From positions 1,538,032-1,602,031 of the forward strand of contig JADJEF010000020.1 of the NCBI GenBank assembly GCA_016702335.1: a DNA stretch of 64,000 nucleotides, in the 5' to 3' direction. Below the pieces are notes generated by a model. That model was not told the origin of the DNA and did no database searches. It was given only the letters and a program-made list of their open reading frames with translations. The translations under genes were made by a program, and so were the position numbers. Source of the stretch: Rhodocyclaceae bacterium. Its GTDB lineage: Bacteria; Pseudomonadota; Gammaproteobacteria; Burkholderiales; Rhodocyclaceae. This document shows, one piece after another, positions 30,885-55,620 of this stretch (position 1 is the first letter of the stretch; every line of letters begins with the position of its first letter).

Positions 30885-30889
30885 TGCGA

Positions 30890-33112: not shown

Positions 33113-33137
33113 TGGTTTGCCTTTCGGTGGGTTGTAG

Positions 33138-33800
33138 TCAAACGGGATCGGTGGTGGCTGGGTCGACGCCAGTGACGCGGTAGCGCTGAGCGGCTTCGTC
33201 GTAGTTGATTATCAGCGCCTGCGCTCCCTTGCAAAGGGTATTCGGTTCGGCGGCGGCAATGCGAATATTGAAGCTGCCGGTGTGATCGGCGCCCTCGGCC
33301 TGACCAAACGCTTCGCCGACTGTCAGCGTAGTGACCCGGCAGTACAGGCCGATCAGACCCTGGCTGGATCGCGCGGTATGGCGCACGAACAAGCCACGTA
33401 TTGGCTGCACCAGGAGCGCAGTGAGAAAAATGGACGGTGCCAACGCGAGCACGGCAACGGCCAGACCCGCCACGGCACGCAAGGGCGCAGTGGGCACCCA
33501 GGACAGGAGGTATTGGGAAATTAGCCCGGTGATTACCCAGGCGATCAGGGTTACCAGGCTGATCACTATCGAGAACGGCACGCCGCTCAAGCCGAAGGCG
33601 ACAACGTAACCGGCGATGGTGGAAAGATGCTCGCCGCCGCTGTGGTTGGGCACCTCGTGGTGGGCATCGATATGCAAATGGCCGTGGTCAAAATTGACGA
33701 CGCCCACCAGCGCCATCAGCCAGTACAGCACCACCACGCCAAGCAATACCGTATAGACACCCGTCGGCCAGCCGACAATCAGTGTTAGCAATGCGTCCAT
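33138..33800 (-). CDS. yqiJ: NfeD-like inner-membrane protein (YqiJ family), partner of the flotillin
   Basis: Multi-TM N-terminus plus C-terminal beta-rich domain (VTTLTVGEAFGQAEG...ALIINYDEAAQRYRV). Lies immediately upstream of the flotillin gene. Confidence 0.7.
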   Translation of the reverse strand: MDALLTLIVGWPTGVYTVLLGVVVLYWLMALVGVVNFDHGHLHIDAHHEVPNHSGGEHLSTIAGYVVAFGLSGVPFSIVISLVTLIAWVITGLISQYLLSWVPTAPLRAVAGLAVAVLALAPSIFLTALLVQPIRGLFVRHTARSSQGLIGLYCRVTTLTVGEAFGQAEGADHTGSFNIRIAAAEPNTLCKGAQALIINYDEAAQRYRVTGVDPATTDPV

Positions 33801-33927
33801 ACCCGTCCTCGCTCAGTTCGCGCCGCCAAAGCCTGTCATTGTGCGGCTATGGGGAAAGTCAATCAAGTCGAATTTGATGACGGCGCGCTTGAATTTGCTG
33901 CCGAAGACTCTCTGCGGCAACGGTGAG

Positions 33928-34872
33928 TCAGCGAGTCTGCGAGGCGATCCAGATCGCCAGCCCCTGAGCATCCAGTTCCAGATCCATGTCCCAGATCTCC
34001 AGCAACTGCACATCTGACTGCTGACAGCCGTGGGCGCGCGCTTCGGCCAGCAGGTAGGTGCGCAGGTGCTGATGAATCGCCGCAATCGCCGTGTCACCAG
34101 CGCCGACTTGCCGCGCAATCGCCACCATGCCGTCCAGCCGGCGCAGCAGGTCAGTCGCTAGCAACGCGGGCGGTGCGCGCCGGCTGTAGTGGGTGAGATA
34201 CACCGCCTCGGGCTGGCAGGCGAGCATGCGTGCCACCGAATCGCGCATGGCCTCGGGATCAAACTGGCTGGGCGTGGTGGTGGGGAAGATGAAGGCGCGG
34301 CCATCGACATCGCATTCGCGATAACTCAGTCCAAAGGTATCGCCGGTGAATAGGCCACGCGCGGCGTGATCGTGAATGAAGACATGGTGCTTGGCATGGC
34401 CGGGGCAGTCATGAAAGCTCAGGGTGCGTGCGCCCAATGTCAGCATCATCCCATCGGTGGTTTCGAGCACGCGTTCGGCTGCAATGGGGATAAGCGCACC
34501 GTAGAGTGCCTTGGCGCGCTCGCTGCCGTATACCTCTTCGGTCGCGGCCCAGAGCTTGGCGGGCTCGATCATGTGCCGCGCCCCGCGCGGGTGCACCACC
34601 AGTTTGGCGTGCGGAAAGGCCTGCATCATGGCGCCAGCGCCGCCGGCATGATCGAGGTGAATGTGTGTGAGCAACACATAGTCAACGCAGTCCGGCGTGA
34701 GGCCCAGCTCGCTCAGCGCAGCTTGAGCGGCCGGCAGGCTGTAGTTGCTGCCGCAATCGACAAAGGCGGCGCGACCGTTGTCGATAATCAGGTGGATCGC
34801 CGCCAGTTGGTGGCGCACATAGGTGGCGTCGATGGCATGAATGCCGTTGCCGTAGTCGATGCGGGGGGTCAT
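33928..34872 (-). CDS. MBL-fold metallo-hydrolase
   Basis: LLTHIHLDHAGG motif. 314 aa. Contains a copy of the dispersed repeat near its 3' end (encoding VGAGDTAIA). Confidence 0.75.
   Translation of the reverse strand: MTPRIDYGNGIHAIDATYVRHQLAAIHLIIDNGRAAFVDCGSNYSLPAAQAALSELGLTPDCVDYVLLTHIHLDHAGGAGAMMQAFPHAKLVVHPRGARHMIEPAKLWAATEEVYGSERAKALYGALIPIAAERVLETTDGMMLTLGARTLSFHDCPGHAKHHVFIHDHAARGLFTGDTFGLSYRECDVDGRAFIFPTTTPSQFDPEAMRDSVARMLACQPEAVYLTHYSRRAPPALLATDLLRRLDGMVAIARQVGAGDTAIAAIHQHLRTYLLAEARAHGCQQSDVQLLEIWDMDLELDAQGLAIWIASQTR
34087..34113 (+). repeat. dispersed element copy 4
   Basis: CGCCGTgtcaCCAGCGCCGACTTGCCG. Lies inside the minus-strand MBL gene, where it encodes ...VGAGDTAIA... Confidence 0.85.
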
Positions 34873-35042: not shown

Positions 35043-35441
35043 ATGTTCTCCGGTTTCGATGTGCTGCTGATGCGCCTGCGCCGCCATGGCTGGGCCTTGC
35101 TCGCCCTGGCCTTGAGCCTGGTGCTGCTGCAAACCGCGACGCTCGCCCGTAGCGCGCCTCATGGGAGCGTCGGCGGCGAAAGCGGGCTCAGTGAAATCTG
35201 TACCGTACAAGGTGTCATCACCGTCAATGCCAACGGCGAACCGGTGCTGCCGGCCAGCAGCGACGCTGGCCACGATTGCTGCGTCAGTTGCATTCTGGCT
35301 GCCCCGGCACTCCCCGATACGGCCCGCATCGCCGTCCCGCCAGCGCCGACTTGCGGAACGCAAGCCGCCCACGTCGCCGCGCCTTACCCTGGGCGCGACC
35401 AGTACCGCGCGCCGCCGAGCCGCGCCCCACCCTCCGCCTGA
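35043..35441 (+). CDS. DUF2946-like small membrane-anchored Cys-motif protein (paralog 1)
   Basis: N-terminal TM. HDCCVSC motif. C-terminal ..IAVPPAPTCG...PP..A tail shared with paralogs at 36627 and 40901. Copper-locus context. Confidence 0.55.
   Translation: MFSGFDVLLMRLRRHGWALLALALSLVLLQTATLARSAPHGSVGGESGLSEICTVQGVITVNANGEPVLPASSDAGHDCCVSCILAAPALPDTARIAVPPAPTCGTQAAHVAAPYPGRDQYRAPPSRAPPSA
35330..35356 (+). repeat. dispersed element copy 5
   Basis: CGCCGTcccgCCAGCGCCGACTTGCGG. In-frame in DUF2946 paralog 1 (IAVPPAPTCG). Confidence 0.85.
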
Positions 35442-35510
35442 GTGTTTTCCGGTGGCCCTGTTCCTGCGAACAGCGGCCTTTGGTTTCTCACTTTTGTTCA
35501 GGAGGGATTC

Positions 35511-36083
35511 ATGTCCCCAGAGAGTTGCATTGGCTTCGCCCATGGCGAAGCAGTTTTGGTCGCTGGCATGCCCGGACGCTGCTGGCGCATTCATCAAGGC
35601 GCTGTCCGCCTCACCCGCTGGGTAGACGACAGCGAGCACTTTGCCGGCCTGGCCCGCACCGGTGACCTGATCGGGGTCGAGGCGCTCATGGGTAATGACA
35701 GCACGTTCAGTGCCTATGCCTTGAGCGAACTTATTCTTGAGCCCAAGGGTGCGCTGGACAGTGCCGCCCTGCTGGCCGCGCTCACCTCCAGCGAGCAACG
35801 AGCCGCCGAGGCGCTCGCCCTGTGTCGCGGCACGGCAGACGAACGCATCGCACGTCTGATGACCCTGCTGGCCAAGCCCACCGCCAGCGGCCACGCCCGC
35901 GTGCAAATGCCCAGCCTGCGCGAAATGGCCGAGATCACCAACCTGACGCAAGAGACCATCTCGCGCGTGGTCAGCCGCTTGCGGCGTCTTGGCCAGTTGG
36001 TGCGCAACAGCCGGGCGCAGGCCGAGTTCATTCCCTGCCGTGGGCTGGCCACCGGCAATCCGGGTCTGAGTCTGGCGGCCTGA
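35511..36083 (+). CDS. Crp/Fnr-family transcriptional regulator
   Basis: RBS aggaggga. cNMP-binding-like N-terminus. C-terminal HTH (SLREMAEITNLTQETISRVVSRLRRLG). Confidence 0.75.
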   Translation: MSPESCIGFAHGEAVLVAGMPGRCWRIHQGAVRLTRWVDDSEHFAGLARTGDLIGVEALMGNDSTFSAYALSELILEPKGALDSAALLAALTSSEQRAAEALALCRGTADERIARLMTLLAKPTASGHARVQMPSLREMAEITNLTQETISRVVSRLRRLGQLVRNSRAQAEFIPCRGLATGNPGLSLAA

Positions 36084-36133
36084 TCACAATTCCCTCCACT
36101 GCCCACTTCATTCACCTTAGCGAAAGAAATCCC

Positions 36134-36604
36134 ATGAGACTCAAACTTGCCGCACTCCTCACTGCTCTCCTCGCCACCGCGCTTGCCAGCCAGTTCGCCG
36201 TGGCCGAGGTCAAGGTCGCCGACGCCTGGGTGCGCGCCACCGTGCCCGCCCAAAAAGCCACCGGTGCCTTCATGACCCTGACGGCTGACAAGGCGACCCG
36301 TCTGATCGCGGCAAGTTCGCCTGCCGCCGAGGTGACCGAGGTGCATGAAATGGCCATGAGCGACGGCATCATGACCATGCGCCATTTGGAGAAAGGGCTG
36401 GAGCTGCCCGCCGGCAAGGCCGTCGAGCTCAAGCCCGGTGGCTATCACTTCATGCTCATGGGCCTGAAGGCACAGATGAAGGCAGGCAGCACCGTGCCGC
36501 TCACCCTCAGCTTGCAAGACGCCGATGGCAAGAGCCGGACCGTCGCGGTCGAGGCCGTGGTCAAGCCGCTCGCGGCCCCGGCGGCAGGCTCCAAGCACCA
36601 CTGA
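36134..36604 (+). CDS. periplasmic copper chaperone PCu(A)C
   Basis: Signal peptide. H(M)x10Mx21HxM-type motif (EVHEMAMSDGIMTMRHLE). About 156 aa. Confidence 0.8.
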   Translation: MRLKLAALLTALLATALASQFAVAEVKVADAWVRATVPAQKATGAFMTLTADKATRLIAASSPAAEVTEVHEMAMSDGIMTMRHLEKGLELPAGKAVELKPGGYHFMLMGLKAQMKAGSTVPLTLSLQDADGKSRTVAVEAVVKPLAAPAAGSKHH

Positions 36605-36626
36605 GCCACTGAGTAACGGCCGCGCC

Positions 36627-36995
36627 ATGCACAGTTGCCGTCTGCGCCACCCGGCTCCGGCATGGCTCATGCTCGTGCTGGGCCTGCTGGTCTGGTGCGG
36701 TCAGGCCATTGCCTTTCAGCGGCTGGCGCAGGCTGAACTGGTGGCGCTTGATCCGCTCGCGCGCATCGTCGCCGCTTCGCTCTGCACCAGTCATGGCGGT
36801 GAAGCCGGCCCTGTTGCCCAAACCCATGACTGCTGCCTCAGTTGCGTCGGCGTTGCCAGCGGTGGCATCCCCGGCAGCGCGCCAAGCGCCGTCTCACCAG
36901 CGCCGACTTGGGGACTGTTCGTTACCGGCATCCACGCACCACCGCCAACACCTCGCTATCTGCGCCGCCCGGCGCGCGAGCCACCCCTCGCCTGA
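36627..36995 (+). CDS. DUF2946-like protein (paralog 2)
   Basis: TM region. HDCCLSC motif. C-terminal AVSPAPTWG...PPPTPRYLRRPAREPP tail. Confidence 0.55.
   Translation: MHSCRLRHPAPAWLMLVLGLLVWCGQAIAFQRLAQAELVALDPLARIVAASLCTSHGGEAGPVAQTHDCCLSCVGVASGGIPGSAPSAVSPAPTWGLFVTGIHAPPPTPRYLRRPAREPPLA
36887..36913 (+). repeat. dispersed element copy 6
   Basis: CGCCGTctcaCCAGCGCCGACTTGGGG. In-frame in DUF2946 paralog 2 (AVSPAPTWG). Confidence 0.85.
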
Positions 36996-37067
36996 TCGAC
37001 ACCCACTGATTCCTCCACGTGCGCGCCGCGCACCGTGGCCGTATTCCCTGTCGATTGGAAGAATTTC

Positions 37068-39203
37068 ATGATGTCCACCCGCATTGCGCTCGCCGTCGCC
37101 ACGGCTTGCACCAGCCTTTCCGCGTTCGCCGTCCATGTGGACGCCCCCCTCACCATTACCGTCACCGCCACGCGTGAAGCCAAGGCCATCGCCGAAACCC
37201 CGGCCAGCCTCAGCGCCGTCGATGGCGAAGCCATCCGCGAGCAACGCCCCACGCACCCCAGCCAGATCCTCAATCAGCTGCCCGGCGTCTGGCTGAGCAC
37301 GCTCTCGGGTGAGGGTCACTTCACCTCGATCCGTCACCCGCTGACCACCGGCGCGGTGTATCTGTATCTCGAAGACGGAATCCCGACACGCTCGACCGGC
37401 TTCTTCAACCACAATGCCCTGTACGAAATCAACGTGCCGCAAGCGGGCGGCATGGAAGTTTCGAAAGGGCCGGGCAGCGCGCTCTACGGCTCGGATGCCA
37501 TCGGCGGCACCATCAACGTGCTCACCCGCGCGCCGGACAAAAGCAATGGCGGCGAGCTGACGCTGGAAGCCGGCAGCCACGGCTGGCAACGCGCCCTGGG
37601 CAGTGCCAGCGTGCGTTGGGGAGACGCGGGCCGGGACGGCCTGCGCGCCAGCGTCAACCTGACACGCACCGACGGCTGGCAGGACGACGCCGGCTACGAC
37701 CGGCAGGCCGGCACCCTGCGCTGGGACCGCGCGCTGGGCGATGGGGCGAATCTCACCACCGTGCTCTCGTATTCGCACGTCGACCAGCAGCATGTCGGCA
37801 GCCTCAACCCGGCGCAACTGCGCGCCACGCCCGAGCACAACAACATTCCGTTTTCCTATCGCACGGTCGATGCCCTGCGCCTGTCCAGCACCTTTGAAAA
37901 GCACAGTGGCGAATGGCTGCTGAGCCTCACGCCCTACTACCGTGACAACCGCATGGAGATCATCCCCAGCTGGTCCGTCACCTACGACCCGAGCCAGTAC
38001 GTGAGTGCCAATGAGTCCTTCGGCCTGCTCGCCAAAGTGCGCCGCGATTTCGTGCCCATGCGTGCACAGCTGATCGCCGGCATCGACCTCGACCACAGCC
38101 CCGGCATGCGCAAGGAAGATTCGATCCGCCTCGCCTCGACCACCAATGCCTTCGGTGCCAGCGACTACACCCTCAACACCGCCACCGCGCCGGTGCGTAT
38201 CTACGACTACGACGTCACCTACCGGGGCATCTCGCCCTATCTGCACGGCGAGATTTCGCCCCTCGAACCGCTGCGCATTACCGCCGGCCTGCGCTACGAC
38301 CGCATGAGCTACGACTACGACAATCACATGGCCGACGCCGCCACACGCGGCGTGCTCACACCCGCCGGATTTCCCGCCGGCGGCTTCTACGGCCACGCGC
38401 CCAGCCAGAAGGTCAGCTACTCGCACCTTGGGCCCAAGCTGGGCGCGACCTGGCGTTTCAGCAAACAGCTGTCGGCCTTTGTGAATTACGCCAATTCCTT
38501 CCGCACGCCCTCCGAGAGCCAGGTGTTCCGGGGCAGCCGTGAATCGAATGCGCTGCGCGCGCAAACCCAGGCGCTCTCGCTCATTGAGCTCAAGCCCGTG
38601 GTGGTGGACAACGTCGAGACCGGCGTGCGCTTCGCCAATGGCCACTGGAGCGGCAGCCTCTCGGTCTATGACATGCACAAGTCGGACGACATTGTCAGCT
38701 ATCAGGACGCGACCTTGCAGCGGCGCACAGTCAATGCCGGCTCGACGCGCCATCGCGGTACCGAGCTGGCGCTGGGCTTGCGTTTCAACGACGACTGGCG
38801 GGCCGATCTGGCCTGGAGCAGCGCCCGCCACACCTATGAAAAATGGCTGATCTCGGGCACCACCGATTACAGCGGCAAGACCATGGAAGCCGCACCGCGC
38901 TACATGGGCCACCTGGCGCTGGCGTGGACGCCCGCGCTACTCAATGGCGGGCATGTGCGGCTGACCTGGCATCACATCGGTAGCTACTGGCATGACCCGG
39001 CCAATACCCAGAAGTACGATGGCCACACCCTGCTCGGCCTGCAAGTGCGTTACCCGGCCAGTGAGCACTGGGAGCTCTATGCCAATGCTGAAAATCTGGC
39101 CAACAAACGCTATGCCGATACCGTCGGCGGCACCGATGCCGCGCCCACCTATGGGGCCGGCCAGCCGCGTACCGTCACGGCCGGCGTGCAGTACCGTTTC
39201 TGA
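37068..39203 (+). CDS. TonB-dependent outer-membrane receptor (copper-locus associated)
   Basis: Signal peptide. Plug domain (GSALYGSDAIGGTINV). C-terminal ...GVQYRF beta-barrel terminus with terminal aromatic residue. Confidence 0.85.
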   Translation: MMSTRIALAVATACTSLSAFAVHVDAPLTITVTATREAKAIAETPASLSAVDGEAIREQRPTHPSQILNQLPGVWLSTLSGEGHFTSIRHPLTTGAVYLYLEDGIPTRSTGFFNHNALYEINVPQAGGMEVSKGPGSALYGSDAIGGTINVLTRAPDKSNGGELTLEAGSHGWQRALGSASVRWGDAGRDGLRASVNLTRTDGWQDDAGYDRQAGTLRWDRALGDGANLTTVLSYSHVDQQHVGSLNPAQLRATPEHNNIPFSYRTVDALRLSSTFEKHSGEWLLSLTPYYRDNRMEIIPSWSVTYDPSQYVSANESFGLLAKVRRDFVPMRAQLIAGIDLDHSPGMRKEDSIRLASTTNAFGASDYTLNTATAPVRIYDYDVTYRGISPYLHGEISPLEPLRITAGLRYDRMSYDYDNHMADAATRGVLTPAGFPAGGFYGHAPSQKVSYSHLGPKLGATWRFSKQLSAFVNYANSFRTPSESQVFRGSRESNALRAQTQALSLIELKPVVVDNVETGVRFANGHWSGSLSVYDMHKSDDIVSYQDATLQRRTVNAGSTRHRGTELALGLRFNDDWRADLAWSSARHTYEKWLISGTTDYSGKTMEAAPRYMGHLALAWTPALLNGGHVRLTWHHIGSYWHDPANTQKYDGHTLLGLQVRYPASEHWELYANAENLANKRYADTVGGTDAAPTYGAGQPRTVTAGVQYRF

Positions 39204-39213
39204 GGAATCCATC

Positions 39214-40419
39214 ATGAGAATTCTGCTTTTCTGTCTGAGCCTTTTTCTGGCCACGGCCGAGGCCCACGACATGAGTGCCCACTGGAAAACCCTGCACCAG
39301 ACAAGGGGCGGGCTGGCCACAGCGCTCGCCAGCGACAGCACCGGCGCGCTCTGGCGCGTCGAAGCGCGGGCCGGGCACCTGTGGGTGAGCCGGTCCACCG
39401 ACACGGGCAAGACTTTCAGCGCCCCGGTGCGGGTCAATGCCGAGCCGGAAACAGTGATGGCCGAAGGCCAGAACCGGCCGCAGATCGCCGTACTGGAGTC
39501 GTCCGGGCAGGCCCCGGTCGTGGTGGTAGCGTGGGTACGGGCGCGGGAAAAAGTGTTTGCCTCGGAGGTTCGCTTTGCTCGTTCGGTCGATGGCGGCGTC
39601 AGCTTCGAACCGGCGCGCACGCTCAATGACGACGGCCAGACCGACATTGGTCACAGCTTTGTCGCCCTCGCCGCACAAGGCGCGCAGCTGACTCTGGCGT
39701 GGATCGACGCCCGCGCATCGCACGCTGCCCGCACCGCCGCCGGCGGCAAGCGCGACGCCTATGCCGGTAGCGCCATTTTTGTTGTCGAGTCGCAGGACGC
39801 CGGCGCGAGCTTTGCGCCCAACCGCAAACTGGCCGACCACAGCTGCGAGTGCTGCCAGCTCTCGCTCGCCAGCCCGGCGACGGGGGCGCCACTGCTGCTC
39901 TGGCGACACATCTTCGAGGGCAAATTCCGCGACTTTGCCCTGGCCGATGTCAGCACCGGCGTGATCACCCGCGCCAGCAGCGACGGCTGGGCGATCACCG
40001 CCTGCCCGCACCATGGCGGTGATCTGGCCATTGCCGCCGACGGCCGCCAGCACTGGGTATGGTTCACCGGGGCGGCCGGCGCCCCCGGCCTGCACTATCG
40101 CCATCAGAGCGGCAATCAACTGTCCCCCGCGCAAGCCGTCGGCAATCTCGACGCGCAGGCGAGCTTTCCGGTCGTCTGGGCTGGCGGTGCGCCGAATGAA
40201 GTGCATCTGGCCTGGCGCGAATTTAGCGACGGCGCCTACGCGCTGCGTACTCGGCGCTCGCAGGACGGCGGTGTGAGCTGGTCAGCCGAGCGCACCGTCG
40301 CCAGCAGCCGCAACGCCGCCGACAACCCGCGCTTTGTGCGCGCCGCCCCGCGCCCGCTGCTGGCCTGGAACACGCAGGAGGAAGGCACGCGCGTGTTTGA
40401 TCTGGGGGTGCAGCCATGA
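39214..40419 (+). CDS. secreted BNR/Asp-box repeat protein (sialidase-like beta-propeller)
   Basis: RBS gaggaa. Signal peptide MRILLFCLSLFLATAEA. Asp-box STDTGKTFS. Confidence 0.7.
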   Translation: MRILLFCLSLFLATAEAHDMSAHWKTLHQTRGGLATALASDSTGALWRVEARAGHLWVSRSTDTGKTFSAPVRVNAEPETVMAEGQNRPQIAVLESSGQAPVVVVAWVRAREKVFASEVRFARSVDGGVSFEPARTLNDDGQTDIGHSFVALAAQGAQLTLAWIDARASHAARTAAGGKRDAYAGSAIFVVESQDAGASFAPNRKLADHSCECCQLSLASPATGAPLLLWRHIFEGKFRDFALADVSTGVITRASSDGWAITACPHHGGDLAIAADGRQHWVWFTGAAGAPGLHYRHQSGNQLSPAQAVGNLDAQASFPVVWAGGAPNEVHLAWREFSDGAYALRTRRSQDGGVSWSAERTVASSRNAADNPRFVRAAPRPLLAWNTQEEGTRVFDLGVQP

Positions 40420-40901
40420 GTCTGCTGCGCAAACTCCTCGGCCTGCTGGTGCTGGTCGCGGCCACGACCGCGTTCGCCAGTGCGCCGGTCAAGCCCTTTA
40501 CCACCGAGAGTTATGCCGCCATTCTCGCCGCGCACCGGGGCCAGCCGCTGGTCGTCGCCTTCTGGTCGCTGGACTGCGCCCATTGCCCGGGCTCGCTGGC
40601 CACACTGGCCAGGTTCGCCCGTGCCCATCCAAAGGTGTCGGTGGTACTGGTCGCCACCGACACCGGCGCAGACCCGGCGGCACTGGCCAGCCATGTGCGG
40701 CAGGCCGCTCTGGCGCAGGCCGAACAGTGGGTCTTCGCCGACCCGCTGCCCGAGCGCCTGCGCCTGAGCATCGACAGCCGCTGGTGGGGCGAACTGCCGC
40801 GCAGCTATCTGATCGCCGCCGACGGCACGCGCAGCGCCCATTCCGGCGTGTTAGACGCCGGGCAGCTGGCCCAGTGGCTGAGCGCGCAGCGGCAGCCCTG
40901 A
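40416..40901 (+). CDS. TlpA/ResA-like periplasmic thiol-disulfide oxidoreductase
   Basis: Signal peptide. Thioredoxin CxxC motif (WSLDCAHCP). Confidence 0.75.
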   Translation: MSLLRKLLGLLVLVAATTAFASAPVKPFTTESYAAILAAHRGQPLVVAFWSLDCAHCPGSLATLARFARAHPKVSVVLVATDTGADPAALASHVRQAALAQAEQWVFADPLPERLRLSIDSRWWGELPRSYLIAADGTRSAHSGVLDAGQLAQWLSAQRQP

Positions 40902-41272
40902 TGCAGCAAGCCCGGCGCGCCCGGTGCAACGCCAGCGCCAGCCGCTGGCTGCTGGCGCTCGGACTGCTGGTGATACTGATGCAGGCCACGGCGCGGTGGC
41001 CGCAGGCACGCACCGTGTCGCTGCAGATGACGCAGGTATGCACCGCGCACGGCATGGTGTCGGTAGTGCTGCCGGGTCCACCGGCACAGAGCGCGCCGGG
41101 CGCGCACGAGTGCTGTCGCGACTGTGTGCTGAACACCCCCGCGCCCCCGGCGCTGCACGCAATCGCCGTCCCGCCAGCGCCGACTTGGGGGCTTTTATCC
41201 AGCGCGGTCAGTACATCGATCACGCCGCCCCGCTACCTGCGCCACCCGGCGCGCGCGCCGCCGCACGCCTGA
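40901..41272 (+). CDS. DUF2946-like protein (paralog 3)
   Basis: Start overlaps the upstream stop (TGATG). HECCRDC motif. C-terminal IAVPPAPTWG...PPRYLRHPARAPP tail. Confidence 0.55.
   Translation: MQQARRARCNASASRWLLALGLLVILMQATARWPQARTVSLQMTQVCTAHGMVSVVLPGPPAQSAPGAHECCRDCVLNTPAPPALHAIAVPPAPTWGLLSSAVSTSITPPRYLRHPARAPPHA
41164..41190 (+). repeat. dispersed element copy 7
   Basis: CGCCGTcccgCCAGCGCCGACTTGGGG. In-frame in DUF2946 paralog 3 (IAVPPAPTWG). Confidence 0.85.
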
Positions 41273-41394
41273 GCCTTTTCCGGCCTTTTGGCTGTCCTGT
41301 TGTCTGCTCTGTGCGCGCACCGCGCGGTGCGTATGCATACGCGTATCCGCCTGCCGGCGGCGCTCCCCTGATCTTTTTCGGAAAGTCTTCTGTC

Positions 41395-43593
41395 ATGAAA
41401 CGCAAACTGCTCTGCACCGCCCTGGCGGCGCTGCCCCTGATCACTCTGGCCGACGAGGCCAGTCTCGCCACCATTGTCATTACCGGCCGGTCCGCTGAGC
41501 CGGCGACCGCCGGCAGCATCGGCCCCCGCCAGCTGCGCGCCCAGCAGGCCGCGACCTCGGATACCGCCAGTCTGCTCAAGGATGTACCCGGCGTCAGCCT
41601 CTATGGGGCCGGCGGCGCGTCCAGCCTGCCGGTGATCCACGGCCTTGCCGACGACCGCCTGCGCATCAAGGTTGACGGCATGGATCTGGTGGCCTCCTGC
41701 CCCAACCACATGAACCCGGCGCTCTCTTACCTCGACCCGAGCAATGTCGCCAAGCTCAAGGTCTATGCCGGCATCGCGCCGGTGAGTGTGGGCGGCGACA
41801 GCATCGGCGGGACGATCCTTGCCGAAACGCCGGCGCCCGAATTTGCCACGGCCGCTGCACCGAGCTTGTTCAAGGGCGAGATTGGCGGCTTTTATCGCAG
41901 CAATGGCGGCGCGACCGGGGGCAATCTCTCGGCCACGGCGGCCACTGAAACGTTCAGCCTGAGCTATTCCGGGTCCATCGCCAAGTCGGACAACTACGAA
42001 GCGGGCGGAAAGTTCAAGACCCGCACCGACACCGGCCGCACCGGCCACAGCCTCGATCTTGATGAGGTCGGCTCCACGGCCTACGAGACGCGCAATCAGA
42101 CGCTGGGCATTGCGTTCAAGAATGGCCAGCATTTGCTGGAAGCCAAGCTTGGGCGGCAGGACGTGCCCGAGCAGCTGTTCCCCAATCAGCGCATGGACAT
42201 GCTGAAGAACACGCAGGATCGCCTGAATCTGCGCTATGCCGGTGAGTTCGCCTGGGGGGCGCTGGAGGCGCGGGTGTATCAGGAAAAAGTCGATCACTTC
42301 ATGGATTTCGGCGCCGACAAGCAGTTCCAGTACGGCACCGCGCCGGGCATGCCCATGAACACCGTAAGCAAAACCACCGGCCTCAGTATTAATGCCAACC
42401 TCGACCTGCGCGCCGGCAACCAGCTGCGCCTGGGCACGGAATTCCAGCACTACGCGCTGAACGACTGGTGGCCGCCCTCGGGCACGGGCATGATGTCGCC
42501 CAATGCCTTCATCAACATCAATGACGGCCAGCGCAACCGCAGTGCTGTCTTTGGCGAGTGGGAACAGCGCGCCTCGGCGCAGTGGCTGAGCGTGCTCGGG
42601 CTGCGCTACGAGCACGTCAGCACCGATGCCAGCAATGTCGCCGGCTATGCCGCCACCAATATGATGGGCTCGAACCAGCTGCGCGACAGCACGGCCTTCA
42701 ACGCCCGGGATCGCAGCAAAACCGACCACAACTGGGACCTGACGGCCCTGGCTCGCTATACGGCCAGCGCCACCTACGACATCGAATTCGGCGTAGCACG
42801 CAAGACCCGCTCGCCCAATCTCTATGAGCGTTATACCTGGTCGACCTGGGGCATGGCGGCGATCATGAACAACTTCAATGGCGACGGCAACGGCTATCTG
42901 GGCGATGTTGAGCTCAAACCCGAGGTAGCTCACACCGCCAGCGCTACCTTCGACTGGCACGCCGCCGATCGCAACTGGGGGTTCAAGGCCACGCCGTACT
43001 ACACGCGCGTTGCCGACTATATCGATGCCGTGCAATGGGACGGCACCAGCAACGTCGCCGACACCACGCCCGCTGTCGGGGCGTTCTCGGTGCTGAAGTA
43101 TCGCAATCAGTCGGCGCGCCTTTACGGGCTCGACCTTTCCGGCCATCTGCCACTGGCCACGACCGCGCTGGGCGAATTCGGCCTGAAAGGCGTGTTGAAC
43201 TACGTCAATGGCAAGAACCGCGACACCGGCGATGACCTGTACAACATCATGCCACTCAACACCCGACTGACCCTGACCCAAACGCTGGGCAACTGGTCCA
43301 ACAGTGCCGAGCTGGTCACGGTGAAGTCCAAAAATCACGTCTCGGATGTGCGCAACGAAATCGCCACCGGCGGCTACAGCCTGATCAACCTGCGCGCGAG
43401 CTACGCATGGGCCAAGGCGCGCATTGATGTCGGCGTGGAAAACCTGTTTGACAAGCGCTACGACCTGCCGCTGGGCGGCGCCTATGTCGGCCAGGGCAGC
43501 ACCATGTCCACCAACACCGCCAACCTGCCCTGGGGTATTGCGGTTCCCGGTGCCGGACGGTCGCTCTACGCGGGCTTCAACCTGAAGTTCTGA
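41395..43593 (+). CDS. TonB-dependent outer-membrane receptor (OprC/NosA-like candidate copper receptor)
   Basis: Signal peptide MKRKLLCTALAALPLITLA. Plug domain. Ends ...GFNLKF. Confidence 0.85.
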   Translation: MKRKLLCTALAALPLITLADEASLATIVITGRSAEPATAGSIGPRQLRAQQAATSDTASLLKDVPGVSLYGAGGASSLPVIHGLADDRLRIKVDGMDLVASCPNHMNPALSYLDPSNVAKLKVYAGIAPVSVGGDSIGGTILAETPAPEFATAAAPSLFKGEIGGFYRSNGGATGGNLSATAATETFSLSYSGSIAKSDNYEAGGKFKTRTDTGRTGHSLDLDEVGSTAYETRNQTLGIAFKNGQHLLEAKLGRQDVPEQLFPNQRMDMLKNTQDRLNLRYAGEFAWGALEARVYQEKVDHFMDFGADKQFQYGTAPGMPMNTVSKTTGLSINANLDLRAGNQLRLGTEFQHYALNDWWPPSGTGMMSPNAFININDGQRNRSAVFGEWEQRASAQWLSVLGLRYEHVSTDASNVAGYAATNMMGSNQLRDSTAFNARDRSKTDHNWDLTALARYTASATYDIEFGVARKTRSPNLYERYTWSTWGMAAIMNNFNGDGNGYLGDVELKPEVAHTASATFDWHAADRNWGFKATPYYTRVADYIDAVQWDGTSNVADTTPAVGAFSVLKYRNQSARLYGLDLSGHLPLATTALGEFGLKGVLNYVNGKNRDTGDDLYNIMPLNTRLTLTQTLGNWSNSAELVTVKSKNHVSDVRNEIATGGYSLINLRASYAWAKARIDVGVENLFDKRYDLPLGGAYVGQGSTMSTNTANLPWGIAVPGAGRSLYAGFNLKF

Positions 43594-43636
43594 CCTGAAA
43601 TGCGGCGATCGGGACGAAGCCGTGACTCGCCCCGAT

Positions 43637-43663
43637 CGCCGTTTCACCAGCGCCGACTTGCGG
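43637..43663 (+). repeat. dispersed element copy 8
   Basis: CGCCGTttcaCCAGCGCCGACTTGCGG. Intergenic, between the TonB-dependent receptor stop and the GGDEF-EAL gene start. Confidence 0.85.
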
Positions 43664-43710
43664 GCCCGGACTGTCATCCTGCGGCAAGACAGCCGGTTCA
43701 TACTACGGGC

Positions 43711-45627
43711 ATGAACGTGTTGCCGACCCAGCTCCAAACCGCGCAAGGCCTACCCTCTGCCCCGACCGATCTGGCGACCTGGCGCCAGCGCCTGCTGGAG
43801 CGCCTGCTTGGCGTCATCATTGTCGCGGGCTGGCTGGTCGCCCTGCCCAGCATTGCCCTGGCGGTTTATGAGCGGCTCTGGCCGCTGGTCGTCGTCGACG
43901 TGGTCGCGCTGGGCTGGCTCTCCCTGATTTACCGCAAGCGCCAGTGGGACTACCGCTGGCGCACCTGGCAGTTGCTCGCCCTGCTTTATCTGATCAGCGT
44001 CGTCCTGCTGCTGACCATCGGCCATGCCAGCCAGATCTACCTGATGGCACTGCCCGTATTGGCCGTGCTGTTGCTCTCGCTGCGCGCGGCCATCGGCTGT
44101 CTGGTGCTCAACGCGCTGACCCTGGCGCTGGTGGGCACGCTGCTCCAGGTCGACAGCGGCATGGCGGCACTGGGCGAGAACCCGCTGCTGCGCTGGGGGG
44201 CGATCACGCTCAATTTTCTGCTTATCGACACGGCCCTCACCATTGCCTGCGCCTTTCTACTGCACGGCATGGAGCGCGCCCTGGCCGAGCAGCAGGCCAA
44301 TGCCCGGCTGCTCGAACATCAGGCCATGCACGACACCCTGACCGGGCTGGCCAACCGCCGCCTGCTCGACGACCGTGTGCATCAGGCCATTGCCCAGGCC
44401 CAGCGTCAGGGCGGCGTGGTCGGACTGGTGTTGCTCGATCTGGATCACTTCAAGCTCGTCAACGACGGCCACGGCCACGAACTCGGTGACGCGCTCATCG
44501 TCGCCTGCGCACAGCGGCTGACCGCCGCCGCGCGCGCCGGCGACACCGTCGCCCGCTTTGGCGGCGACGAGTTTGTCGTGGTGCTCACCGGCCTGCGCAC
44601 GGAAAGCGAATTGCCGGGGGCCATCGAACGCCTGCATGGCGCCATTGGCGGCCGCTACGAATTACCCGGCCATGAGCTGCATGTCGGCACCAGTATGGGC
44701 GTGGCGGTGTACCCGCGTGACGGCGCCGACGCCACCAGCCTGATCAAGAGCGCCGACACCGCGATGTATCGGGCCAAGGAAAAGGGGCGCGACGGCTTCC
44801 AGTTTTTCCAGGCAGAAATGAACGATCGGCTGGCGCAGCGTTTGCAGCTGGAGAACGCCCTGCGCGACGCCCTTGAGCGTGATCAGCTGCGCCTGCATTT
44901 CCAGCCCCGCGTGGGTGCATCCGACGGCCGGCCGCGCGGTGGCGAGGCCCTGCTGCGCTGGCACCACCCCGAGCTGGGCCTGATCAGCCCGGCGCAGTTC
45001 ATCCCCATCGCCGAGGAAACCGGGCTGATCGTGCCCATCGGCGAATGGGTGGTGCGCACCGCCGCCGAGCATCTGGCGCAGTGGCAGCAGGAGTTTCCGG
45101 TCATGTGCCTGAGCGTCAATATTTCGCCCCGGCAGTTTCGCGCTGCCGGGCTGGAGCCGGCGATCCGTGCCGCCTGCGCGCGCGTCGCGCCGGGCACCCT
45201 GGAAGTGGAGATCACCGAGAGCCTGGTCATGCATCAGCCCGATGCCGCCTTCAGCCTGTTGCGCCAGTGGCGTGCGCTGGGTGTTGGTGTGGCCATGGAC
45301 GATTTCGGTACCGGCTTTTCCAGCCTGGCGCGGCTGAAGTCCTTTCCGCTCGATGTGCTCAAGATCGATCAGTCGTTTGTGCGCGGCATCGGGCAGGACG
45401 CCTCCGATGCCGCCATCGTCAAGACCATTGTCGACCTGGCCGGGAACCTCGGGCTGACCACCGTCGCCGAGGGCGTGGAGACGGACGGGCAGGCGAGCAT
45501 TTTGCGCAAACTCGGCGTGCATGAGTTGCAGGGCTATCTGCTGGCGCGGCCGATGCCGGCGGACGACTACCTGGCCTGGTGGCGGGCACAGGCCGCCGCC
45601 CCAAGTGGCGGACACGTGGCAGAATAA
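43711..45627 (+). CDS. membrane-anchored GGDEF-EAL (diguanylate cyclase/phosphodiesterase) protein
   Basis: N-terminal multi-TM sensor domain. RFGGDEF motif. EAL-type domain (EVEITES...DDFGTG...KIDQSF). Confidence 0.85.
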   Translation: MNVLPTQLQTAQGLPSAPTDLATWRQRLLERLLGVIIVAGWLVALPSIALAVYERLWPLVVVDVVALGWLSLIYRKRQWDYRWRTWQLLALLYLISVVLLLTIGHASQIYLMALPVLAVLLLSLRAAIGCLVLNALTLALVGTLLQVDSGMAALGENPLLRWGAITLNFLLIDTALTIACAFLLHGMERALAEQQANARLLEHQAMHDTLTGLANRRLLDDRVHQAIAQAQRQGGVVGLVLLDLDHFKLVNDGHGHELGDALIVACAQRLTAAARAGDTVARFGGDEFVVVLTGLRTESELPGAIERLHGAIGGRYELPGHELHVGTSMGVAVYPRDGADATSLIKSADTAMYRAKEKGRDGFQFFQAEMNDRLAQRLQLENALRDALERDQLRLHFQPRVGASDGRPRGGEALLRWHHPELGLISPAQFIPIAEETGLIVPIGEWVVRTAAEHLAQWQQEFPVMCLSVNISPRQFRAAGLEPAIRAACARVAPGTLEVEITESLVMHQPDAAFSLLRQWRALGVGVAMDDFGTGFSSLARLKSFPLDVLKIDQSFVRGIGQDASDAAIVKTIVDLAGNLGLTTVAEGVETDGQASILRKLGVHELQGYLLARPMPADDYLAWWRAQAAAPSGGHVAE

Positions 45628-45708
45628 AGCCGTACGCGCCGCTCTTCGGTGGCCGGCGCATGCACTGCCCCTGACTATCCACGCTAGCCACCCCTCCGGG
45701 AGAACCTC

Positions 45709-46152
45709 ATGGATCGACGCGACACTCTGCTCGCCCTTGCCGGCGCCGGCCTGCTGGCCGCCAGCGGCAGCGCGGCTGCCAGCAACCACCAGCATCATGG
45801 CCACCACGGTCACAGCATGGCCCTGCACGACGCGCTGATCGCAGCGGCGAGCAAATGTGTGAGTACCGGTGAAGCCTGCCTGGCCCACTGTCTGGTGCTG
45901 CTCGCCGATGGCGACAAGGCCATGGCCGAGTGCGCCCAGTCGGTCAATGAAACCCTGGCTATCTGCGGCGCGCTGCGCAGCCTCGCCGGCCAGCAGTCGA
46001 ATCACACGCCGGCCATGGCCAAGGTCGCGCTCGATGCTTGCCTCGAGTGCGAAAAGGAATGCAAGAAGCATGCCGACAAGCACGCCGAATGCAAGGCCTG
46101 TATGGAGGCCTGCGCCGACTGCGCCAGGGAGTGCAAGAAGCTGATCGGCTGA
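45709..46152 (+). CDS. Tat-exported four-helix-bundle Cys-rich copper-storage protein (Csp1-like, DUF326)
   Basis: Twin-arginine signal MDRRDTLLALAGAGLLAASGSAAA. His-rich stretch. Multiple CxxxC pairs on predicted helices. Confidence 0.7.
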   Translation: MDRRDTLLALAGAGLLAASGSAAASNHQHHGHHGHSMALHDALIAAASKCVSTGEACLAHCLVLLADGDKAMAECAQSVNETLAICGALRSLAGQQSNHTPAMAKVALDACLECEKECKKHADKHAECKACMEACADCARECKKLIG

Positions 46153-46189: not shown

Positions 46190-46216
46190 CGCCGTGTCAC
46201 CAGCGCCGACTTGGGG
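46190..46216 (+). repeat. dispersed element copy 9
   Basis: CGCCGTgtcaCCAGCGCCGACTTGGGG. Intergenic, between the convergent csp-like and fbpA genes. Confidence 0.85.
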
Positions 46217-46263: not shown

Positions 46264-47277
46264 TTACTTCCAGCCGGCGCGATCAAATACCTTTTGTGCG
46301 GTGGCGGCATGGTTCGCCAGTTGCGCGACGGGCAGCGCATCGGCCTTGAACGGCCCCATGGCCTTGAGTGCCGGGTTGTCGACCTTGACACTCGCCACCA
46401 CCGGCCACTCGTTATTGCCATCGGCAAAATATTTCTGCGCGCTGTCCGAGGCGAGGTACTCCAGGAACTTCACGGCCGCTTCCTTGTGCGGAGCTGTTTT
46501 CAGCAGGCCGCCACCCGAGACATTGATGTGCGCACCCAAGCCTGAGGCCTGCTCGGGCCAGACCACCTGAAACTGGCTGGCCAGCTTTTTGTCTTCGGGT
46601 TTCTCGCTGCGCAAGATGCGCGCGACGTAGTAGCTGTTGGCAATCGCCACGCCGCATTCGCCGGCGGCCACGCCCTTGATCTGGTCGGTGTCGCCACCCT
46701 TGGGCGTGCGCGCGAAGTTTTGCACTACGCCACGCGCCCAGGCCTCGGCACGCGCCTCATCGCTGTGCGCAATGATCGAGGCCAGCAATGAGATGTTGTA
46801 CGGGTGCGCACCCGAGCGGCTGCACACCTGACCCTTGAGTTTGGGGTTGGCCAGGTCGCCGTAGCTCTGCACATCGGCCGCCTTGACCAGCGCCGGGTTG
46901 ATCACGAACACGCGGGCGCGGGTCGAAAACGCCAGCCAGGTGTCGGCGCGCAGGTTGGCCGGCACGCGTGATTCGATGGCTTTCGACTTCACCGGCGCGA
47001 ACAGACCCAGCTCATCGGCCTTGGCCAGGCGCGAGGCATCGACGGTAATAAACACGTCGGCGGGGCTCGACGCACCCTCGTTCTTTAGCCGTTCGAGCAG
47101 TTCGTCTTCCTTGCCTTCAATGCGATTGATCTTGATGCCGGTTTGCTTGGTGAAATCGGCATACAGCGCTTCATCGGTCTGGTAGTGACGGGCTGAGTAG
47201 AGGTTGAGTTCGGTGTCTTTGGCCTGAGCAGTGGAAAAAGCAGCGGTCATGGCGAGAAAGAATGCAGCGCGTTTCAT
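46264..47277 (-). CDS. fbpA: Fe(3+) ABC transporter substrate-binding protein (FbpA/AfuA family)
   Basis: Signal peptide. 337 aa. Typical FbpA sequence, with Fur boxes in its upstream region. Confidence 0.85.
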   Translation of the reverse strand: MKRAAFFLAMTAAFSTAQAKDTELNLYSARHYQTDEALYADFTKQTGIKINRIEGKEDELLERLKNEGASSPADVFITVDASRLAKADELGLFAPVKSKAIESRVPANLRADTWLAFSTRARVFVINPALVKAADVQSYGDLANPKLKGQVCSRSGAHPYNISLLASIIAHSDEARAEAWARGVVQNFARTPKGGDTDQIKGVAAGECGVAIANSYYVARILRSEKPEDKKLASQFQVVWPEQASGLGAHINVSGGGLLKTAPHKEAAVKFLEYLASDSAQKYFADGNNEWPVVASVKVDNPALKAMGPFKADALPVAQLANHAATAQKVFDRAGWK

Positions 47278-47295
47278 GGGCGGGTTCCTTGGGTG

Positions 47296-47380
47296 GAGTG
47301 GAGAACGTACGTATCTTAATGAGAACGATTCTCATTCTACTTGACTTATATCAATCCACAAATGAGAATGATTCCTAATA
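47296..47380. promoter_or_regulatory. divergent Fur-regulated promoter with two Fur boxes
   Basis: AATGAGAACGATTCTCATT is a perfect 8-bp inverted repeat matching the Fur-box consensus. A second box is AATGAGAATGATTCCTAAT. Both sit between fbpA and hemP. Confidence 0.65.
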
Positions 47381-47595
47381 ATTCATCCCATTCACTGATC
47401 AACTTACCTGTCATGACCCCTCTCAACACGTCCCTCGCCCCGCCTCGCCCCGACCAGCCCGTGCCCGTGCACCGCATCAACGGCATGGACAGCCGCACCC
47501 TGTTTGCCGGGGCCAAAGAAGTTCTGATCCTGCATCACGGCGAGCCCTACCGCCTTCGCGAAACGCGGCAGGGCAAGCTGATCCTGACCAAGTAA
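47341..47595 (+). CDS. hemP: hemin uptake protein HemP
   Basis: C-terminal LFAGAKEVLILHHGEPYRLRETRQGKLILTK is the HemP signature. The true start is probably Met 47413 (60 aa), because 47341 overlaps a Fur box. Confidence 0.65.
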   Translation: MTYINPQMRMIPNNSSHSLINLPVMTPLNTSLAPPRPDQPVPVHRINGMDSRTLFAGAKEVLILHHGEPYRLRETRQGKLILTK

Positions 47596-47605
47596 AGGAG
47601 CCACC

Positions 47606-47821
47606 ATGTACGTGTGCATCTGCAATGCGGTACGCGAAGCCGACATCCACGCTGCCGTCGCTGGCGGTGGCTGCCGGAAAGTGCGAGACTTGCGCACGCA
47701 GTTGGGGGTAGCGGCCGAGTGTGGCCGCTGCGCCGGCTGCGCGCGCGAGGTGCTGCATCAGGCTCTGCAAACCCGTGCCTCGAACAACCCCGCGGTCCGC
47801 GCCTGTTGCGCCGCCGCCTGA
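47606..47821 (+). CDS. bfd: bacterioferritin-associated ferredoxin
   Basis: RBS aaaggag. MYVCICNAV...CGRCAGC [2Fe-2S]-binding BFD motif. Confidence 0.85.
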
Positions 47822-47834
47822 ACGGAGATTTGCC

Positions 47835-48311
47835 ATGAAAGGCGACGCCCAGGTCATCAAACTGCTCAACAAGCAACTGGTCAACGAGCTGACCGCGATC
47901 AACCAGTATTTCCTGCATGCGCGCATGTACAAGAACTGGGGCTTTACCGCCCTGGGCAAGCATGAGTACGAGGAGTCGATCGAGGAAATGCATCACGCCG
48001 ACAAGCTCATCGAGCGCGTGCTGTTCCTCGAAGGCTTGCCCAATCTGCAAGCGCTGAACAAGCTGATCATCGGCGAGAACGTGCCCGAATGCATCGCCGG
48101 CGATCTGAAGCTGGAAAAGGGCGCGCACAAGGATCTGGTCGAGGCCATCGCCCACTGCGAGAGCGTGCGCGACTACGTCTCGCGTGATCTGCTGCAGGAG
48201 ATTCTCGACGATACCGAAGAGCACATCGACTACCTCGAAACGCAACTGGAGCTGATCGAGAAGGTCGGCGTGCAGAACTATCTGCAGACGCAGATGGGCT
48301 CGCCCTCGTAG
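47835..48311 (+). CDS. bfr: bacterioferritin
   Basis: [37 protein letters not shown]; a classic Bfr of 158 aa. Confidence 0.9.
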
Positions 48312-48421
48312 CTTTGCAACACTGACGGCCGGGCAGTCTCCCGGTCTTTTCCAGCCAGCCAGCCGGCGCGCATGATGCGCCTGGCAAGCCAGCCAACAAT
48401 CATCTTGTTTGGAGGTTTGCC

Positions 48422-48976
48422 ATGCGCATCGCGCGCCTTGCTGTAGTTGCCGCATCACTCACCACCCTGACCACCCTGCCAGCGCTGGCGCTGGAATACC
48501 CCATCGGCGCGCCGAAGGAGGTCAATGGTCTCGAAGTCGCTGCCGTTTATCTGCAGCCCATCGACATGGAACCGCCCGGCCACATGCGCAAGGCCTCGGA
48601 GTCGGACATCCACCTCGAAGCCGACATCAAGGCCTTGGGCAAGAACCCCAACGGCATTCCCGAAGGTGCCTGGGCGCCTTACCTGCACGTCACCTTCGAG
48701 CTGACCAAGGCCGGTGACAAGGACGTGATCAAGGGCGACATGATGCCCATGGTCGCCAGCGACGGTCCGCACTATGGCGACAACGTCAAGCTCAAGGGCC
48801 CGGGCAAGTACAAGGTTAAATTCACCGTCTACCCGCCGGGCGATGCCGGCAACCCGCATGGTGCGCACTTCGGCCGCCACACCGACCGCGCCACCGGTGT
48901 CGGTGCCTGGTTCAAGCCCTTCAGCGTGGAGTGGGACTTCACCTACGCCGGCATCGGCAAGAAGGGCGGCTACTGA
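48422..48976 (+). CDS. ftrA: periplasmic iron/copper-binding protein P19 (FtrA/Tp34 family)
   Basis: Signal peptide. Conserved P19 segments (MMPMVASDGPHYGDNVKL, KVKFTVYPPG). Confidence 0.8.
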   Translation: MRIARLAVVAASLTTLTTLPALALEYPIGAPKEVNGLEVAAVYLQPIDMEPPGHMRKASESDIHLEADIKALGKNPNGIPEGAWAPYLHVTFELTKAGDKDVIKGDMMPMVASDGPHYGDNVKLKGPGKYKVKFTVYPPGDAGNPHGAHFGRHTDRATGVGAWFKPFSVEWDFTYAGIGKKGGY

Positions 48977-49347: not shown

Positions 49348-49352
49348 TCGTT

Positions 49353-51430: not shown

Positions 51431-51431
51431 T

Positions 51432-52154: not shown

Positions 52155-52166
52155 GCGGCCAACACC

Positions 52167-52586: not shown

Positions 52587-52594
52587 ACCGGTAC

Positions 52595-55619: not shown

Positions 55620-55620
55620 C

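Follow-up and report, generated by a model that had tools for sequence, protein, structure and literature searches.

Why should a single row of copper genes contain three members of the DUF2946 family? The question is raised by an island of about 11 kb (positions 35043–46152) in a stretch of 64,000 nucleotides (nt) from a Rhodocyclaceae bacterium; this whole stretch, referred to here as the window, is the DNA that was searched. An initial annotation had treated the three genes as an odd triplication of copper-binding partner proteins. The published role of the family, however, is that of regulatory leader open reading frames (ORFs), such as cruR of Bordetella pertussis. Because all three copies show the defining anatomy of CruR and its relative CutF, we conclude from sequence comparison that they are most likely copper-sensing attenuators and not triplicated copper chaperones. 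It also appears likely, though well short of assured, that the island is a cluster for copper acquisition, handling and storage, arranged as three consecutive modules with a CruR-type leader ORF at the head of each.

The gene row and its leader reading frames

The island comprises eleven genes, all on the plus strand. Their identity and order as given in the initial annotation are confirmed by ORF listing, translation and family scans, and public contigs of this species, whose genes were called independently, give a concordant picture. Proteins of the window are 96–100% identical to those of contig JADJBN010000001.1 (GCA_016703725.1, a metagenome-assembled Rhodocyclaceae bacterium), and the island is also present on a Joint Genome Institute (JGI) metagenome contig. 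In gene order, the intergenic gaps are 69, 50, 22, 72, 10, −4, −1, 122, 117 and 81 nt. The row is flanked by divergent or convergent genes, with a metallo-β-lactamase-fold gene upstream and a gene for an FbpA-like binding protein downstream, both on the minus strand. A promoter and terminator scan of the island revealed neither a sigma-70-like promoter nor a convincing intrinsic terminator, terminator-like hairpins being at chance level. Scanned over its whole length, the window gave no tRNA and no Rfam match, cobalamin riboswitches included, and a search for Crp/Fnr-type palindromes gave two matches, neither at a promoter position.

We propose that module 1 consists of a Crp-family regulator and the chaperone PCuAC behind cruR1; that module 2 consists of TonB-dependent receptor 1, a Cys-rich β-propeller and a thioredoxin-fold protein with a CxxC motif behind cruR2; and that module 3 consists of TonB-dependent receptor 2, a MASE11-GGDEF-EAL protein and the storage protein Csp1 behind cruR3. 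The assignment of the locus to copper, which the initial annotation had also made, is borne out by the PCuAC motif, the Csp1 match and the OprC-type copper ligands of receptor 2.

The three leaders are cruR1 (DUF2946-1, 35043–35441, 132 residues), cruR2 (DUF2946-2, 36627–36995, 122 residues) and cruR3 (DUF2946-3, 40901–41272, 123 residues). Copies 1 and 3 match PF11162 (DUF2946) with 28.6 and 26.5 bits respectively, above the cutoff of 23.7; copy 2 has no Pfam match, yet it is 42–47% identical to the other two and shares every motif with them. Three family genes are thus present as the initial annotation stated, but at 42–47% identity the copies are old paralogues and not the product of a recent triplication. 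The N-terminus of each, judged by eye, is export-like, with a hydrophobic stretch following basic residues. The metal motif is HDCCVSC in cruR1 (CVSC at residues 80–83), HDCCLSC in cruR2 (CLSC at 70–73) and HECCRDC in cruR3 (CRDC at 72–75), so that the originally described pattern HDCC.SC holds for copies 1 and 2 but not for copy 3.

At the C-terminus, cruR1 carries a doubled motif, RAPPSRAPPSA-stop (RAPP at residues 122 and 127), while cruR2 ends REPPLA-stop (REPP at 117–120) and cruR3 ends RAPPHA-stop (RAPP at 118–121). In all three the putative arrest motif R(A/E)PP ends two residues before the stop codon, and it is separated from the CxxC by 43, 43 and 42 residues in cruR1, cruR2 and cruR3 respectively. 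The stretch between the two motifs is of low complexity and poorly conserved. The last third of each leader, measured in the 78-nt windows used in the published work (PMC9426467), forms a bubble in which C exceeds G (C 0.41–0.51, G 0.19–0.31; C peaks of 0.50–0.51, G minima of 0.19–0.27). These bubbles lie at approximately 35250–35497, 36873–37081 and 41095–41303 and reach into the spacers of 69, 72 and 122 nt that precede the next gene.

This anatomy fits that described in B. pertussis. There the upstream ORF bp2923 (cruR) encodes a nascent product that arrests the ribosome on a C-terminal RAPP; the arrest is lifted when copper is sensed by a CxxC lying 45 residues upstream, after which Rho terminates transcription before bfrG (PMC9426467). 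The 3′ part of cruR is a C>G-rich, unstructured Rho loading site whose effect depends on the mRNA sequence and not on the encoded amino acids (PMC9426467), and the bubbles of the island agree in location with this Rho utilisation (rut) region. In a published survey the CxxC–arrest spacing was 45 residues, give or take one or two, the cruR homologues were mostly first in their operons, and their neighbours included TonB-dependent transporters, PCuAC and AhpC/TSA-like genes (PMC9426467).

The island shares with the B. pertussis operon cruR(bp2923)-bfrG-bp2921 a DUF2946 leader with a putative export signal, a CxxC, a conserved spacer, a C-terminal RAPP and a C>G 3′ end, as well as a TonB-dependent transporter placed right after a leader. 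It differs in having three leaders, two of them internal, in its shorter CxxC–arrest spacing (42–43 residues compared with 45) and in the two, not three, residues that follow the arrest motif. One of its leaders carries REPP and another a doubled RAPP, and it has no PepSY_TM gene. Its cargo goes beyond that of the B. pertussis operon in the regulator, the cyclic di-GMP (c-di-GMP) enzyme and Csp1. The oprC gene of Pseudomonas aeruginosa is likewise preceded by a cruR homologue. A copper-starvation operon of Bradyrhizobium japonicum, pcuABCDE, is reported to begin with a DUF2946-type gene and to include a TonB-dependent receptor, PCuAC and functions for cuproenzyme biogenesis; compared by description, it has a single leader and its accessory genes differ from those of the island. 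The locus is therefore an unusually elaborate case of a known class, the CruR-led copper operons, and not a new system. What is unusual is the presence of two leaders inside the gene row, a conserved REPP variant of the arrest motif and a cargo previously unreported.

A word-indexed search with cruR3 returned only itself and a 95% variant. In its place, a hidden Markov model (HMM) built from the three copies was run exhaustively over 1.84 billion representative proteins and gave 47 relatives with the same layout. Both motifs could be placed in 41 of these; their CxxC–arrest spacing has a mode of 43, and they end in R(G/A)PP followed by two or three residues; the arrest motif itself is RGPP in 25, RAPP in 13, HAPP in two and REPP in one. 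In a sister taxon (locus L210, receptor 82% identical), both the order pcuAC-cruR2-receptor 1-propeller-redoxin and the ending REPPLA-stop are kept, and this retention of motif and position makes REPP look like a maintained variant and not a product of decay. In locus L212 (receptor 71% identical), a leader ORF at approximately 800–1175 carries HDCCFDC and ends ARAPPLV-stop, upstream of a receptor gene at 1276. This ORF had been missed by the public gene calls, and leaders of this kind may be under-annotated.

One distant leader homologue directly heads a propeller-redoxin pair. When the HMM of the three leaders was run against six-frame ORFs of 85 loci, 80 of them from other genomes, it found none outside this species, and a motif search by regular expression over the related loci gave just four leader candidates. 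Leaders are almost absent from propeller loci, and CruR is therefore not a general feature of the propeller module.

Receptors and other cargo

The initial annotation had likened the locus, with its two TonB-dependent receptors, to those of the OprC/NosA type; only one of the two is a relative of that group, and a distant one. Receptor 2 (41395–43593), which has Plug and barrel domains, has OprC of P. aeruginosa as its sole strong solved relative. Its residues C102, M106, H301 and M303 align with Cys143, Met147, His323 and Met325, the copper ligands of OprC (PMC8610252), and are invariant in nine homologues. The Cys-Met pair lies in the plug and the His-Met pair in the barrel, as in OprC and in NosA of Pseudomonas stutzeri. 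The middle part of receptor 2 gave no match in the PDB, and its HxM site was aligned only through the nine-member family profile; the Cys-to-His spacing is 199 residues, compared with 180 in OprC. With 134.6 bits against TIGR01778, far under the equivalog cutoff of 472.45, receptor 2 is placed in a distant subfamily of OprC. Its predicted function is the import of ionic copper, by way of a Cys-Met-His-Met site like that of OprC.

Receptor 1 (37068–39203) also has Plug and barrel domains but is unrelated to the OprC/NosA group. Its nearest solved relatives are YncD and the pyrroloquinoline quinone (PQQ) transporter PqqU (E ∼1e-26), and by the test that the initial annotation had set for itself, its reading fails for this receptor. 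It has no match to TIGR01778, and its NCBIfam matches are all far under their cutoffs. The mature chain has no Cys and no CxxxM–HxM site, carrying invariant His residues instead. Close relatives of receptor 1, for example in Thiobacillus denitrificans and Magnetococcales, carry generic names only.

The gene that follows encodes a secreted protein (39214–40419) whose AlphaFold model shows a β-propeller fold with a mean predicted local distance difference test (pLDDT) score of 90.6. The protein was called BNR in the initial annotation; its BNR_2 score of 29.3 bits lies under the Pfam gathering cutoff of 31.4. Foldseek comparison with the PDB gave only generic propellers, with template-modelling (TM) scores of 0.45–0.59, root-mean-square deviations of ∼7 Å and 10–16% identity. 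The invariants of the family are C211-x-C213-C214, a CxCC motif, and C264-P-H266; they are Cys and His, not the catalytic residues of sialidases. The label 'sialidase family' given to such proteins in public databases is unsupported and is probably wrong.

The start codon of the next gene (40416–40901) overlaps the propeller stop (ATGA). Its product is a secreted thioredoxin-fold protein with the motif CAHC, which scores 19.6 bits against AhpC-TSA and 16.5 bits against Thioredoxin, both under the Pfam gathering cutoffs. The best solved relatives, MPT53, StoA and DsbF, are weak matches (E ∼1e-3 to 1e-2). Beside its CAHC, the redoxin, TlpA-like in the initial annotation, shows only a weak similarity to secreted thiol-disulfide oxidoreductases.

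These genes travel together. A search of species-representative genomes with an alignment of eight sequences located propeller relatives in 320 stretches, including those of Nitrosomonas europaea and Thiobacillus denitrificans. Eighty loci were fetched; where they continue beyond the propeller gene, the very next gene nearly always encodes a CxxC thioredoxin-fold protein, and in most a receptor 1-type gene adjoins the propeller gene. Several Azonexus-like loci show the order receptor 2, crp, receptor 1, propeller, redoxin. Receptor 1 would act together with the Cys-rich propeller and the redoxin as a conserved module whose substrate is possibly a copper complex. The literature was searched for the pair of propeller and redoxin in connection with copper limitation, with no result. 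Being conserved in hundreds of Beta- and Gammaproteobacteria, the module is a candidate for a new metal-import pathway.

Assignment of module 2 to copper is complicated by the possibility that it serves the uptake of a different metal or of an organic cofactor, its place in a metal-acquisition neighbourhood being incidental. The relationship of receptor 1 to YncD and PqqU and its invariant His residues in place of a Cys/Met copper site are in keeping with this, as are the occurrence of the module without CruR or PCuAC in most of the 80 genomes and the wealth of iron and cobalt uptake genes in the window. The CutF work, moreover, regards the family as not wholly copper-specific, and some DUF2946 relatives have been proposed as nickel or cobalt sensors. 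Yet a CruR-type leader with HDCC heads the module here, in the sister taxon and in L212, and elsewhere a leader directly heads a propeller gene. PCuAC is a neighbour of the module in the island and in five or more further loci, and receptor 1 scores only 113 against the PqqU equivalog cutoff of 1200. We consider a non-copper substrate for module 2 unlikely, though far from negligible.

The PCuAC protein (36134–36604), a periplasmic Cu(I) chaperone with a signal peptide, matches PF04314 with 131.4 bits and has the canonical motif H(M)X10MX21HXM at residue 71; it would hand Cu(I) to cuproenzymes. Csp1 (45709–46152), a member of a four-helix-bundle family, has the twin-arginine leader MDRRDTLL and 13 Cys and scores 155.4 bits against TIGR04401 (cutoff 100). 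Its best solved relative is Csp1 of Methylosinus trichosporium OB3b (PDB 5FJD, E 2.5e-25), with which it shares the twin-arginine-type leader, the four-helix bundle and the 13 Cys at aligned positions. The Csp-like storage protein of the initial annotation is thereby substantiated. The host here is not a methanotroph, and the gene stands behind a copper importer and a c-di-GMP enzyme. Csp1 would buffer or store periplasmic copper.

The membrane protein MASE11-GGDEF-EAL (43711–45627) scores 158 bits for GGDEF, 247 for EAL and 145 for MASE11, and its GGDEF, EAL and DDFGTG motifs are intact. The Crp-family regulator (35511–36083, 190 residues) is small and divergent, with 27.4 bits against HTH_Crp_2 (cutoff 27), 26.1 bits against the cNMP-binding domain (cutoff 27.5) and weak similarity to FixK and LdrP. 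Homologues with 37–41% identity lie between the two receptor types in Azonexus-like loci. Its Cys residues, at positions 6, 24, 105 and 176, form neither a CxxC-x5-C cluster nor an Fnr-type N-terminal cluster, and we find no evidence to support the earlier suggestion that the module responds to redox state. Together, the regulator and the c-di-GMP enzyme would relay copper status to further genes.

Proposed control by copper

By analogy with CruR of B. pertussis, a ribosome translating one of the leaders would arrest on R(A/E)PP, with two codons left before the stop. There it would mask the C-rich 3′ end, a putative Rho loading site, and at leaders 1 and 2 it would also mask the 5′ arm of a helix that sequesters the next ribosome-binding region. 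At low copper, transcription and translation would then run on into the module. Copper bound to the nascent HDCCxxC, 42–43 residues upstream of the arrest point, would relieve the arrest; once the ribosome had departed, Rho would terminate, the helix would close and the module would be switched off. Only cruR1 heads the row. The start codon of cruR2 lies 22 nt past the pcuAC stop, and the ATG of cruR3 overlaps the redoxin stop by one nucleotide (TGATG); the three checkpoints are therefore probably serial on one long transcript, an arrangement that would yield graded repression.

The helices in this scheme are predicted long-range pairings. In helix 1 (35430–35506) CCCUCCGC, from the final codons of cruR1, pairs with the regulator Shine-Dalgarno sequence GGAGGG, and in helix 2 (36992–37058) the stop-codon zone of cruR2, CUGAUCGACA, pairs with UGUCGAUUGG, an arm that ends 9 nt before the start of receptor 1. 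Helix 2 recurs in L210 and L212 although the enclosed sequence differs, and between the window and L212 two of its base pairs show compensatory changes in both partners (A-U becoming U-A in one and C-G in the other). Helices of at least ten pairs between the stop zone and the ribosome-binding site are predicted in six of the nine junctions examined. Since a ribosome stalled two codons before the stop covers the 5′ arm, such a helix would reinforce the CruR logic, being open when the ribosome is stalled and closed when it is released. We retain the helices only as a hypothesis, because the single-sequence shuffle tests are not significant.

Repression by copper is the weakest step of this model. 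We infer its direction from a cargo concerned mainly with import, from the copper repression of OprC and BfrG, and from the presence of the C>G bubbles.

Several observations weigh against the reading of the island as three copper modules under CruR-type control. Two of the leaders are internal, whereas most published cases stand first in the operon; the spacers of 69–122 nt are shorter than the 162 nt of B. pertussis; and the REPP of cruR2 is unmatched elsewhere among the 41 homologues. CruR is missing from most loci that carry the receptor-propeller-redoxin genes, no copper site can be recognised in receptor 1, and between 4 and 21% of shuffled sequences match the predicted helices individually. 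The direction of the response, moreover, is drawn chiefly from the cargo, whereas in the CutF prototype the sign is opposite, copper inducing stalling and turning the downstream gene on. The motif HDCCxxC holds both the CxxC spacing of CruR and the CxxxC spacing of CutF, and a storage protein beneath a copper-starvation switch is not intuitive.

These last points lead to the question of whether at least one leader, most plausibly that of module 3, might work with the polarity of CutF. In the cutF-cutO-cutG operon of Rhodobacter capsulatus, copper prolongs stalling on CutF, and a stem-loop that covers the ribosome-binding site of a copper oxidase gene is melted as a result (bioRxiv 2022.11.11.516240, 2025.02.05.636593). 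CutF belongs to the same family as the island leaders and has a proline-rich C-terminal stalling motif ∼45 residues from its metal motif. The stem-loop at the cutF-cutO junction has a predicted counterpart at leaders 1 and 2 and at four related junctions, the CC-x2-C motif can be read as CxxxC, and storage would be useful when copper is abundant; copper could on this basis melt a helix at the ribosome-binding site and turn a module on. CutF, however, combines CxxxC with a copper-induced detoxifying oxidase, whereas the island carries import and storage functions, for which the opposite sign is therefore expected. The cargo is mostly TonB-dependent importers whose characterised relatives, OprC and BfrG, are copper-repressed. 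Leader 3, which precedes the Csp1 gene, is the one junction of the island with no predicted helix, and the C>G bubbles suit Rho-dependent control. CutF-like polarity at any of the leaders therefore seems to us quite unlikely.

Least credible of all, and in our view improbable, is the original notion that the DUF2946 products are stable periplasmic copper-binding partners or chaperones of the receptors and PCuAC, their number reflecting dosage or specialisation, for although every copy has an export-like N-terminus and a conserved Cys/His motif and adjoins copper-handling genes, the best-conserved features are an arrest peptide held at a fixed distance from the metal motif across low-complexity, poorly conserved sequence, CruR of B. 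pertussis works in cis and its protein product cannot be detected (PMC9426467), and CutF is degraded after export.

If the leaders do act as CruR-type attenuators, three sensors ending in doubled RAPP, REPP and RAPP on one transcript would be a natural test bed, one that could reveal how the strength and position of arrest shape a graded copper response. The locus would tie a post-transcriptional sensor of this type to a transcription factor, c-di-GMP signalling and Csp1 storage.

A repeated 24-nt word and the genomic setting

Each leader also contains a copy of a 24-nt word, CGCCGTnnnnCCAGCGCCGACTTG. No other word recurs nearly as often in the window, which has 13 copies, all on the plus strand, where 0.04 would be expected. 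Ten are exact (starts 7296, 15129, 23195, 34087, 35330, 36887, 41164, 43637, 46190 and 49381) and three have one mismatch (starts 50971, 53465 and 59511). Within the island the word lies in cruR1 (35330–35353), where it encodes AVPPAPTC, in cruR2 (36887–36910) and in cruR3 (41164–41187), and in two non-coding positions, one between receptor 2 and the GGDEF-EAL gene (43637–43660) and the other 38 nt past the csp1 stop (46190–46213). In the leaders it encodes AV(P/S)PAPT(W/C), and its position coincides with the stretch of B. pertussis CruR in which the mRNA and not the amino-acid sequence matters. Some copies in the window are intergenic, some fall in several reading frames of unrelated genes, and others run antisense within two minus-strand genes.

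Even with three mismatches allowed, the word is absent from 1.34 Mb of loci from other genera. At least 115 metagenome stretches have exact, isolated copies, which lie in either orientation and share no conserved flanks; the copies are enriched outside genes, approximately 45% falling beyond ORFs, and they cluster near the 3′ ends of genes in either orientation. Leaders of other organisms that are only ∼40% identical as proteins keep the nucleotides of the word. In eight of nine genes the word has CCA and ACT, both rare codons; at other positions of those genes, common codons are used for Pro and Thr. Locus L212, from a sister lineage, has its own dialect of the word, CGCCGTATCACCAGCGCTGACTT, in seven copies within 13 kb.

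A role as a general RNA-level terminator or rut signal is unlikely, the copies near gene 3′ ends being antisense as often as sense, and an origin as relics of further cruR genes was rejected given the copies in unrelated genes, in several frames and antisense. The word, in the form CGCCGTnnnnCCAGCGCCGACTT(G), may conceivably be a lineage-specific, genome-wide signal resembling a DNA-uptake sequence that has become lodged in the copper-sensing leaders or been co-opted by them, a suggestion that we regard as doubtful. To our knowledge, DNA-uptake sequences have been described only in Neisseriaceae and Pasteurellaceae, and a literature search for the word or for uptake sequences in Rhodocyclales found no mention of either.

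The cumulative GC skew of the window turns near 33 kb (∼32000–34000), rising before and falling after this point, and the word keeps its strand there. A different dispersed intergenic repeat of ∼40 nt, beginning AATGCTACGGTC, is found in the Azonexus-like loci L027, L031 and L032, with about four copies per 21 kb in both orientations.

The island sits in a metal-acquisition neighbourhood with a TonB system at hand. Adjoining it at 46264–52600 is an iron-handling block with the FbpA-like binding protein, hemP, bfd, bacterioferritin, a P19 (Iron_transport) protein, a cupredoxin and a membrane Fer4_5 protein, followed by TonB-ExbB-ExbD. P19-type iron uptake systems are copper-dependent, and copper and iron uptake are therefore physically linked here. 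Further downstream there are a toxin-antitoxin pair and, at 53310–59694, a TonB-dependent receptor followed by a CobN-like chelatase subunit of 1357 residues. On the other side of the island, on the minus strand at 25414–33112, a 1759-residue AAA-type protein (DUF3686/DUF7902) adjoins a 740-residue Band_7 protein, whose gene is flanked on its other side by that of a 220-residue protein with no family match; this set may be a defence-like or membrane-scaffold module.

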